18,148 nucleotides of DNA from a virus (Duplodnaviria > Heunggongvirae > Uroviricota > Caudoviricetes): the IMG/VR virus record IMGVR_UViG_2703718826_000002; one strand, 5' to 3'. The translations under genes were made by a program, and so were the position numbers. The notes under the pieces are model-generated. The model worked only from the letters and a program-made list of their open reading frames with translations, made no database searches and was not told the origin of the DNA. Below, one piece after another: positions 7,358-10,152 of this stretch (its first letter is position 1; each line of letters begins with the position of its first letter).

Positions 7358-8920
7358 ATGAAAATGACAAGTATTCAACAACGTGCAGAGCTTCATCGTC
7401 AAATCTGGCAAATTGCTAACGATGTCAGAGGTTCGGTCGATGGATGGGATTTTAAGCAATACGTTCTGGGCGCGCTTTTCTACCGTTTTATCAGCGAAAA
7501 TTTTTCCAGCTATATTGAAGCCGGTGATGACAGCATCTGTTATGCGAAACTGGATGACAGCGTAATTACTGATGACATTAAAGACGATGCCATCAAAACC
7601 AAAGGCTACTTCATCTACCCAAGTCAGCTTTTCTGCAACGTAGCTGCGAAAGCAAATACCAATGACAGACTGAACGCAGATTTAAACAGCATCTTCGTTG
7701 CTATCGAAAGTTCTGCTTACGGCTACCCTTCAGAAGCAGACATCAAAGGTTTGTTTGCTGATTTCGATACCACCAGTAACCGCCTGGGTAACACCGTTAA
7801 AGATAAAAATGCCCGCCTGGCTGCGGTTCTGAAAGGGGTTGAAGGGTTAAAACTTGGTGACTTCAACGAACATCAGATTGACCTGTTCGGTGATGCCTAT
7901 GAGTTCCTGATTTCTAACTATGCGGCAAATGCCGGTAAGTCAGGCGGTGAGTTCTTTACACCGCAGCACGTCTCCAAGCTGATTGCACAACTGGCTATGC
8001 ACGGGCAGACCAACGTTAACAAAATCTACGACCCGGCAGCGGGTTCCGGCTCACTGTTGTTGCAGGCTAAAAAGCAGTTTGATAACCATATCATCGAAGA
8101 AGGCTTTTTTGGTCAGGAAATCAACCATACAACCTATAACCTGGCACGTATGAACATGTTTTTGCACAACATCAACTACGACAAGTTTGATATCAAGCTG
8201 GGTAATACACTGACTGAGCCACACTTCAGAGATGAAAAACCGTTTGATGCCATCGTTTCTAACCCGCCGTATTCGGTGAAATGGATTGGCAGCGATGACC
8301 CGACGCTGATTAACGATGAACGTTTTGCCCCGGCTGGCGTTCTGGCCCCCAAATCCAAAGCTGACTTCGCCTTTGTACTACATGCGCTGAACTATCTTTC
8401 TGCCAAAGGTCGTGCTGCGATTGTTTGCTTCCCGGGTATTTTTTACCGTGGCGGCGCGGAGCAGAAAATCCGTCAGTATCTGGTTGATAATAACTATGTC
8501 GAAACCGTGATTTCACTGGCACCGAATCTGTTCTTTGGCACCACTATTGCCGTCAATATTCTGGTGCTGTCTAAACATAAAACGGATACCAAAGTTCAGT
8601 TTATTGATGCCAGCGAATTGTTCAAAAAAGAGACTAACAACAATATCCTGACCGATGCCCATATCGAACAGATTATGCAGGTATTTGCCGGCAAGGAAGA
8701 TGTTGCCCATCTGGCGAAATCTGTTGCGTTTGAGACTGTTGTCGCGAATGACTATAACCTGTCGGTGAGCAGTTATGTTGAAGCGAAAGATACTCGCGAA
8801 ATTATCGATATCGGTGAGCTGAATGCTGAGCTGAAAACCACGGTCAGCAAAATCGACCAGTTGCGCAAAGATATTGATGCGATTGTGGCTGAAATTGAAG
8901 GCTGCGAGGTGCAGAAATGA
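7358..8920 (+). CDS. hsdM: Type I restriction-modification system, methyltransferase subunit HsdM (Type IC, EcoR124-family)
   Basis: 520 aa; AdoMet motif [10 protein letters not shown] and N6-adenine motif NPPY (AIVSNPPYS); N-terminus matches recalled EcoR124I HsdM. Stop overlaps hsdS start (ATGA). Confidence 0.95.
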
Positions 8921-10152
8921 GCGAGATGAGTTATCTGGAAAAATTGCTGGATGGGGTTGAAGTTGAGTGGTTGCCATTGGGGGAAATAACCAAATATGAA
9001 CAGCCAACAAAGTATTTGGTAAAAGCAAAAGATTATCACGACACATATACCATACCGGTTCTTACTGCCGGAAAAACATTTATTCTTGGATACACAAATG
9101 AGACTCATGGTATTTATCAGGCATCAAAGGCACCTGTAATAATTTTTGATGATTTCACCACCGCTAATAAATGGGTGGATTTTGACTTTAAGGCAAAATC
9201 ATCGGCCATGAAAATGGTTACATCATGTGATGATAATAAAACCTTACTGAAATATGTTTACTATTGGCTCAATACATTACCAAGTGAATTCGCAGAGGGA
9301 GACCATAAACGCCAATGGATTAGTAATTATTCTCAAAAAAAAATCCCAATCCCCTGCCCGGATAATCCGGAAAAATCCCTCGCCATCCAGTCTGAAATCG
9401 TTCGGATTCTGGACAAATTTACTGCACTTACCGCTGAGCTTACCGCTGAGCTTACCGCTGAGCTTAACATGCGTAAAAAACAGTATAACTACTATCGCGA
9501 CCAGTTGTTGAGTTTTGATGAGGAGCAGGAAAAACCTATTTATCTGGAAAAATTGCTGGATGGGGTTGAGGTTGAGTGGTTGCCATTGGGGGAAATAACC
9601 AAATATGAACAGCCAACAAAGTATTTGGTAAAAGCAAAAGATTATCACGACACATATACCATACCGGTTCTTACTGCCGGAAAAACATTTATTCTTGGAT
9701 ACACAAATGAGACTCATGGTATTTATCAGGCATCAAAGGCACCTGTAATAATTTTTGATGATTTCACCACCGCTAATAAATGGGTGGATTTTGACTTTAA
9801 GGCAAAATCATCGGCCATGAAAATGGTTACATCATGTGATGATAATAAAACCTTACTGAAATATGTTTACTATTGGCTCAATACATTACCAAGTGAATTC
9901 GCAGAGGGAGACCATAAACGCCAATGGATTAGTAATTATTCTCAAAAAAAAATCCCAATCCCCTGCCCGGATAATCCGGAAAAATCCCTTGCCATCCAGT
10001 CTGAAATCGTGCGAATTCTGGACAAATTCGACACACTGACCAACTCCATCACCGAAGGTCTCCCGCGTGAAATCGAGTTGCGCCAGAAACAATACGAGTA
10101 CTATCGTGATTTACTGTTCAGTTTCCCAAAACCTGAAACAGCCAGTAATTAA
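8917..10152 (+). CDS. hsdS: Type I R-M specificity subunit HsdS (Type IC) with duplicated target-recognition domain and 3 x TAEL central repeat
   Basis: 411 aa; central region [16 protein letters not shown] and distal conserved region are homologous as expected, but the two TRDs are identical 163-aa segments. Confidence 0.9.
8931..9419 (+). repeat. direct repeat copy 1 (about 489 bp; hsdS TRD1)
   Basis: Near-identical to 9540-10028 (offset 609 bp) with only a few synonymous mismatches. Confidence 0.9.
9427..9462 (+). repeat. 3 x 12-bp tandem repeat CTTACCGCTGAG (TAEL x3) in the hsdS central conserved region
   Basis: Perfect tandem triplication; in Type IC systems the copy number sets the spacer length of the bipartite recognition site. 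Confidence 0.9.
9540..10028 (+). repeat. direct repeat copy 2 (about 489 bp; hsdS TRD2 position)
   Basis: Encodes the same 163 aa as copy 1. Confidence 0.9.

Follow-up and report, generated by a model that had tools for sequence, protein, structure and literature searches.

An 18,148-nt stretch of viral DNA (Caudoviricetes; IMG/VR record IMGVR_UViG_2703718826_000002), hereafter the window, was found to carry a Type I specificity gene, hsdS, in which both target-recognition domain (TRD) slots are occupied by the same TRD. Judged by its sequence, the locus appears to be an intact Type IC restriction-modification operon of the EcoR124 family, presumably active, and the repeated TRD is 100% identical to the N-terminal TRD of EcoR124I, which reads GAA. 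It is likely that this EcoR124-family HsdS, with a GAA TRD in each slot, reads the interrupted palindrome GAAN8TTC, and that its gene was formed by crossover between alleles and movement of domains from slot to slot.

The repeated recognition domain of hsdS

The hsdS open reading frame (ORF) lies at 8917–10152 on the plus strand (1236 nt, 411 aa), is intact and matches Pfam Methylase_S. Its nucleotides 8931–9419 recur 609 nt (203 codons) downstream, in the same register, as a 489-nt direct repeat at 9540–10028. Base-by-base comparison of the copies gave 99.2% identity with 4 mismatches (8961 A/G, 9381 C/T, 9402 T/G and 9405 G/A), all synonymous and at third codon positions, and both copies encode the same 163 aa, which confirms the claim of an earlier sequence-only reading that slot 2 holds a second copy of TRD1. 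Identity is lost abruptly at both borders (8930/9539 and 9420/10029), and a 489-nt repeat of this identity cannot have arisen by chance. The segments following copies 1 and 2, compared over 33 aa each, form homologous but different helices, as expected from the same reading, which had described the central and distal conserved regions as distinct yet homologous. The parts of the gene are as follows, the limits of the flanking segments x and y being those of the corresponding repeats (55 nt and 74 nt) in the heterologous alleles L010 and L004.

8917–10152, plus strand: hsdS, with the architecture N-x-TRD(GAA)-y-central helix-linker-x-TRD(GAA)-y-distal helix (ORF list, translation, Pfam, alignment to 7bst_A, AlphaFold model)
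8931–9419, plus strand: repeat unit copy 1, with x at 8931–8985, TRD core at 8986–9345 and y at 9346–9419 (repeat search, base comparison)
9420–9539, plus strand: central conserved region (helix D1) and linker encoding DEEQEKPI (translation)
9430–9465, plus strand: three tandem 12-nt repeats (ACCGCTGAGCTT) encoding TAEL three times (12 aa), the spacer-length determinant (repeat search; role from PMC3874165)
9540–10028, plus strand: repeat unit copy 2, with x at 9540–9594, TRD core at 9595–9954 and y at 9955–10028 (repeat search, base comparison)
10029–10152, plus strand: helix D2 (distal conserved region) together with the C-terminal end of HsdS (near-identical in EcoR124 HsdS)

The threefold TAEL array had been noticed previously and is present, although it had been placed at 9427–9462, one codon off the codon register. 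The central region (9420–9539) is 99–100% identical to that of other three-TAEL alleles, and helix D2 is as long as the three-TAEL D1. Before the slot-2 TRD there is a linker of 17 residues in place of KEG, and this longer linker repeats the 13-aa N-terminal segment. A derivation of the DEEQEKPI part from the 3′-end of hsdM, by an ancestral duplication that included upstream DNA, was considered and dropped, the alignment being unconvincing.

The AlphaFold model of the 411-aa protein showed a symmetric secondary structure, with two beta-rich domains and helices at residues 151–199 and 354–400. Its best Foldseek match was EcoR124 HsdS (7bst_A; template modelling scores 0.66/0.70), followed by 1yf2 and 5ybb_D, which are structures of full-length HsdS. 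The predicted fold is thus the canonical full-length one, two globular TRDs with two long helices between them, and the chain, having two TRDs and two helices, falls outside the half-size homodimeric class of the EcoR124I_NT and NgoAV type, into which only its 208-aa relatives fall.

Relationship to EcoR124 and predicted specificity

The genes are arranged in the order hsdM-hsdS-hsdR, all on the plus strand; the hsdM stop overlaps the hsdS start (ATGA), and a 121-nt spacer precedes hsdR. The features flanking hsdS are listed below.

7358–8920, plus strand: hsdM, 520 aa, N6-adenine methyltransferase subunit (Pfam N6_Mtase and HsdM_N; match to the EcoR124 M chain)
10168–10192, plus strand: 7-bp inverted repeat GACCGGA...TCCGGTC with an 11-nt loop and without a T-run, in the hsdS-hsdR spacer just past the hsdS stop (read from the sequence)
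10274–13390, plus strand: hsdR, 1038 aa, translocase/endonuclease subunit (Pfam HSDR_N, SWI2_SNF2, T1R_D3-like and EcoR124_C)

HsdM matched the EcoR124 M protein 7bst_D over its full length (1155 bits, residues 1–520), as HsdR did EcoR124I HsdR 2w00_A (2295 bits, residues 1–1038), and because of these full-length scores both are regarded as near-identical to the EcoR124 chains. In HsdS, residues 1 to ~172, spanning the N-terminal TRD, are identical to EcoR124 HsdS (7bst_A), and the distal helix is near-identical, with one substitution (A409 here versus V) among the last residues. The position of the EcoR124 C-terminal TRD, the reader of RTCG, is taken by the second GAA TRD. Gene order, relatedness of HsdM and HsdR, and a TAEL-bearing central region all place the locus in the Type IC (EcoR124) family, and the kinship of the three subunits with those of EcoR124 bears out the previous naming of the gene as a Type IC hsdS. 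The inverted repeat at 10168–10192 overlaps a putative promoter-like site (10180–10209) ahead of hsdR. Within hsdM, 11 mismatches to plasmid NZ_CP010179.1 were observed in 205 nt (8341–8545), compared with none in the 1.5 kb compared downstream of hsdS; this cluster looks like a short recombination patch.

In Type IC enzymes, each TRD reads one half-site and the number of TAEL repeats sets the interval between the methylated adenines, two repeats giving 7 nt and three giving 8 nt (PMC3874165). When transferred to the opposite slot, a TRD recognises its half-site as the reverse complement (PMC3983042). Three engineered enzymes are relevant here: EcoR124I_NT/delta50, a dimer of two-TAEL half-subunits with the same GAA TRD, reads GAAN7TTC (PMC2877798; PMC3874165); the three-TAEL truncation EcoDXXI deltaC reads TCAN8TGA (PMC3874165); and the three-TAEL hybrid EcoRD3, [GAA]~~[GAAY], reads GAAN7RTTC (PMC3874165). 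The last of these sites is a subset of GAAN8TTC. Under these published rules, a [GAA]~~[GAA] HsdS with three TAEL repeats and a normal distal helix is expected to recognise GAAN8TTC, leaving 8 nt between one methylated adenine and the other. A symmetric pair of half-sites had been anticipated by the sequence-only reading, and by analogy with the TRD rules the symmetry of the predicted site is well supported. The N7-type spacer suggested together with it does not follow from three-TAEL geometry, and the term holds only if taken to mean an EcoR124II-type helix length. Natural 407-aa variants with two TAEL repeats (see below) are expected, by the same analogy, to read GAAN7TTC.

In the mechanism proposed, one HsdS and two HsdM would form the methyltransferase, in which the identical TRDs would be inverted on an antiparallel coiled coil. 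Such an arrangement would read an interrupted palindrome, and the helix length, that of EcoR124II and EcoDXXI, would give GAA-N8-TTC. The third base of GAA would be methylated on each strand and, with HsdR, unmodified DNA would be restricted.

Distribution, origin and derivatives of the double-GAA allele

An hsdS identical over all 1236 nt was present in 3 independent complete plasmids, whose hosts were E. coli 1585m1 from a silver gull in Australia, E. coli 22AR0118 from a human, and an E. marmotae isolate from the UK; a sheep isolate from the USA, E. coli 2273-PO3, had a 99.9% copy. Two more lineages had the same double-GAA architecture: B, 98.1% identical to the window hsdS and represented by at least 9 further plasmids, and C (protein P0003). 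The comparison with hsdS alleles of related strains that had been proposed earlier thus recovered the same gene and architecture in several plasmid lineages, and the view that the repeat is no simple assembly duplication stood. Among 5426 complete RefSeq E. coli genomes there were 6 intact double-GAA alleles and 1 broken by IS1. Double alleles were counted from single-piece full-length DNA matches only, with representatives checked by translation; counting by coverage of at least 80% was rejected, since both query copies align to one subject TRD, for which reason most matches in three pieces are ordinary GAA-X alleles. A lineage-B double-GAA allele with IS1 inserted in its first TRD was seen at 420–2432 of L005 (NZ_JCAPUC010000003.1). 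In a collection of 15 billion proteins, mostly from short-read assemblies, the exact 411-aa HsdS and the 614-aa HsdS described below were absent, and a 208-aa HsdS was found on 60 contigs; as short-read assemblies dominate the collection, the excess of the 208-aa form may be partly due to repeat collapse.

Both slots in this plasmid-borne subfamily are flanked by the same repeats, x (~55 nt, 17 aa) and y (74 nt, 25 aa), which in the window are the ends of the 489-nt unit. They are visible as direct repeats (x, 52–55 nt; y, 74 nt) in alleles with two different TRDs, L004 and L010, but do not surround both slots in L008, a chromosomal allele of the EcoR124I type. Of the 119 closest homologues, 102 have the GAA TRD in slot 1 and 23 have it in slot 2; four TRD clusters were found in both slots. 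Examples of a TRD in either slot are the reciprocal pair P0007 (X-GAA) and P0008 (GAA-X), P0011 with P0030, and L004 with P0027. Because the same x and y flank both slots, TRDs have evidently moved from one to the other ("domain movement", DoMo). DoMo in hsdS has been described in Helicobacter pylori, Streptococcus pyogenes and Moraxella catarrhalis (Furuta et al. 2011, 2014; Blakeway et al. 2018), and no description of it for the EcoR124 family was found in the literature searched. The plasmid-borne alleles have the features of that class, namely repeats at both slots, a given TRD in either slot, and one- and three-TRD derivatives.

The window allele itself has the structure of a recombinant. 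Over its 3′ 808 nt, a part that starts where the TAEL array ends and extends to hsdR, it shows 100% identity to L014, an X-GAA allele whose TRD1 is unrelated; the linker, the y end, the distal helix and the intergenic spacer all fall within this part. The slot-2 unit is identical to that of the X-GAA alleles L012 and L014, the first 510 nt of hsdS differ by 2 nt from the EcoR124I-type allele L008, and the GAA TRD core haplotype is the same in most alleles, whichever slot it occupies. The simplest account would be that a GAA-X allele and an X-GAA allele recombined by a crossover within the central conserved region. The recent intragenic recombination or gene conversion that had been deduced from the high identity of the copies is not required, since the 3′ 808 nt match an existing X-GAA allele and such a crossover suffices; by itself, high identity between the copies is no sign of a recent intragenic event.

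Once formed, the 609-nt tandem unit would be a substrate for recombination yielding one-TRD (208-aa) and three-TRD (614-aa) derivatives, and slippage of the 12-nt TAEL repeat would yield the two-TAEL 407-aa versions. The hsdS of L003 (1501–2127 in NZ_CP010179.1) equals the window gene minus exactly one 609-nt unit; its crossover lies within a 419-nt identical block and its product is a 208-aa N-TRD-D2 half-subunit. L009 (NZ_CP010146.1) is the equivalent one-TRD 208-aa derivative of lineage B. Half-size 208-aa hsdS genes were also observed in the complete plasmids NZ_CP076303.1 and NZ_CP074035.1. In the plasmid of E. coli RHB13-SO-C03 (CP099227.1), the hsdS of L002 (1487–3331) encodes 614 aa with three GAA TRDs and two three-TAEL central helices, and the plasmid is 609 nt longer than sister plasmids of the same study (95826 versus 95217 nt); this is either a true unequal-crossover product or an assembly miscount. 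Double-GAA versions with two TAEL repeats (407 aa; L019, L017, L018, L020; proteins P0001–P0003) occur in lineages that also have three-TAEL ones, A and B among them, so TAEL slippage of the EcoR124I/II type has recurred in the wild on the double-GAA background. A homologue from a Logan assembly, P0014 (546 aa), has three different TRDs, one of them GAA-like, and three helices, and may have arisen by the joining of a half-size hsdS to a full-size one.

It is quite doubtful, though conceivable, that the 609-nt unit combines with the 12-nt TAEL repeat into a two-level, recombination-driven series of specificities, with GAAN8TTC read by the fused form, GAAN7TTC upon TAEL loss, a 7-nt interval also for the D2:D2 homodimer of the 208-aa form (as derived for EcoDXXI deltaN from its published site), and a functional three-TRD protein. 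If so, the three-TRD HsdS would be a natural subunit of unprecedented stoichiometry, and near-identical plasmids differing in unit number alone would carry different immunity and methylation patterns.

Several points weigh against the interpretation favoured here. The specificity and activity of the window enzyme are deduced from sequence; GAAN8TTC and its spelling variants gave no matches in the literature searched, where GAAN7TTC occurred only in the EcoR124I_NT papers; both motifs were neither depleted nor enriched in the window relative to shuffles, which is uninformative; the AlphaFold model is of moderate confidence (predicted local distance difference test 73, predicted template modelling score 0.56); the longer slot-2 linker could in principle shift the register, yet 25 natural alleles use it; and NZ_CP010179.1, which of all relatives is closest to the window as a whole (99.9% identity across 96% of it), carries a one-TRD hsdS, so that the unit number in any one assembly is less certain. 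It is unlikely, though far from negligible, that the intact allele reads a site other than GAAN8TTC, be it GAAN7TTC or another spacing owing to the longer linker, or encodes an inactive twin-TRD protein. According to PMC3874165, it is not understood how the register of the helices determines the gap, and the D2:D2 homodimer of EcoDXXI deltaN reads GAAYN5RTTC, a 7-nt methylation interval by our own count, though D2 is as long as the three-TAEL D1. Every published Type IC construct pairing a three-TAEL D1 with D2, however, gives an 8-nt interval, the long linker occurs in many alleles with different TRDs, and the differences between the copies are all synonymous in a gene conserved intact over hosts and countries. 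An assembly artefact, either a false duplication of the 609-nt unit or a real gene with two different TRDs, is hardly credible. Near-identical tandem repeats are prone to assembly error, and the single unit of the nearest relative and the absence of the 411-aa protein from the large protein collection, in which the 208-aa form is on 60 contigs, could be read that way; but the copies differ in their flanks and at four fixed positions, the frame is intact, independent complete plasmids and two other lineages agree, and short-read collapse would produce the opposite artefact, the 208-aa form.

As to the origin, a recent event within one gene, whether gene conversion or replacement of TRD2 by TRD1, retains some weight as a minority possibility. 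The TRD core (8962–9380) is 100% identical between the copies, and in lineages B and C the private single-nucleotide polymorphisms are present in both copies (9054C/9207T in B, 8959A/9029C in C), a concerted pattern; in those lineages the copies have been homogenised to some extent, or the allele was formed independently out of one lineage. The haplotype of the window lineage, however, is the common one, seen in most single-GAA alleles of either slot, and the inter-allele crossover fully explains the identity of the entire 3′ part to an allele with a different TRD1. That variation in unit number (one, two or three TRDs) and TAEL slippage constitute a programmed switch, selected for high-frequency phase variation of specificity, is improbable. 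One-, two- and three-unit and two- and three-TAEL forms do occur within single lineages, and near-identical plasmids differ by just one unit; but the pattern is that expected of RecA-dependent unequal crossing-over in any tandem duplication, and a one-unit form, having lost the central helix, could regain it only with the help of another allele. The parts of such a switch were also missing from the window: a repeat search of 8500–10500 gave no inverted repeats, and the window ORFs included no recombinase and no second or silent hsdS, so the gene does not belong to the shufflon or inverting phase-variable class (SpnD39III, Mycoplasma type).

Phage-plasmid context and comparison with known systems

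The flanks of the window are P1-like, encoding C1 repressor, antirepressor, Lpa, DUF968 and doc/phd, and are 95–98% identical to P1, RCS47, SJ46 and phi456, and the plasmids that they match have been typed as IncY. The operon is carried on a P1-like (IncY) phage-plasmid of Escherichia, beside phd/doc. This addiction module (6580–7181, minus strand) lies directly upstream of hsdM and is divergent from it, with a gap at 7182–7357, and the Type IC operon is an accessory insertion adjoining the plasmid-stabilisation module in the P1-like backbone. The antirepressor ORF (1559–2455, minus strand; ORF6N domain) stops after about the first 40 positions of the KilAC/ANT domain, and the annotation of its homologue in NZ_CP086387.1 records a frameshift and an internal stop; the ORF is probably a pseudogene of the immunity region. 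The homologue of Lpa, the late promoter activator (4922–5236, minus strand; 104-aa ORF), matches Pfam positions 1–64 of 131 and may be truncated. A literature search linking P1-like phage-plasmids to hsdS returned nothing relevant.

Among characterised enzymes, EcoR124II (Type IC; GAAN7RTCG; three TAEL repeats) shares with the window system the gene order, near-identical HsdM and HsdR, an identical TRD1, a near-identical distal helix and the TAEL number. In EcoR124II, however, TRD2 reads RTCG, where the window HsdS has another GAA TRD after a longer linker; the carriage of the window operon by a P1-like phage-plasmid is a further difference. Two copies of one N-terminal TRD and an interrupted palindrome are common to EcoR124I HsdS(delta50)/EcoR124I_NT and EcoDXXI deltaC, but those are laboratory half-subunits dimerising through D1:D1, whereas in the window HsdS both TRDs belong to one natural, fused chain whose coiled coil is D1:D2 and whose three TAEL repeats predict N8. 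Closer to the EcoR124I_NT-type half-subunits are the 208-aa forms found in nature (L003, L009), except that they keep D2 and not D1. With the DoMo genes of H. pylori, S. pyogenes and M. catarrhalis, the window hsdS has in common the order x-TRD1-y-centre-x-TRD2-y and the occurrence of the same TRD in either slot across alleles; unlike those described, it belongs to a phage-plasmid of Enterobacteriaceae hosts and has the same TRD in both slots of one allele, in at least 3 lineages.

Natural symmetric bipartite specificity based on two like TRDs, as predicted here, has precedents in NgoAV, a Type IC enzyme reading the palindromic GCAN8TGC through a truncated homodimerising S subunit (PMC3874165), and in the M.BstXI S subunit, [CCA]~[CCA], with two like TRDs reading CCAN6TGG (PMC3874165). 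The symmetry of NgoAV is that of a truncated homodimer, unlike the fused chain of the window, and BstXI is a Type II system whose two TRDs are similar, not identical. A palindromic Type I-like motif has also been seen in H. pylori methylomes (strain F32). The statement in the sequence-only reading that symmetric specificity had been obtained only with engineered HsdS was consequently too strong, in view of these cases and of the natural two-TAEL proteins P0001–P0003. Four Type IC HsdS proteins (P0005, P0009, P0043 and P0044, the last from Snodgrassella alvi) have GAA-like TRDs in both slots, with halves 64–70% identical; given such diverged pairs in other taxa, twin-TRD specificity subunits are neither restricted to E. 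coli nor recent.

The system is thus predicted to have an EcoR124-family specificity so far undescribed, formed by a known mechanism. The recombination route to twin-, one- and three-TRD genes and natural symmetric Type I-like specificities had both been described already, so the double-GAA hsdS opens no new mechanism, and its importance is modest unless the copy-number series proves to change specificity. An hsdS of this type is likely to be collapsed to half size in short-read assemblies. It is nature's equivalent of the symmetric EcoR124I enzymes engineered in the laboratory, with which the two-fold architecture of Type I specificity subunits was established, and it shows domain movement, known mainly from Helicobacter, at work in the best-studied Type IC family, on mobile P1-like plasmids of Enterobacteriaceae. 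For E. coli methylomes, it predicts an unreported N6-methyladenine motif, which would be GAAN8TTC, or GAAN7TTC for the two-TAEL variants.

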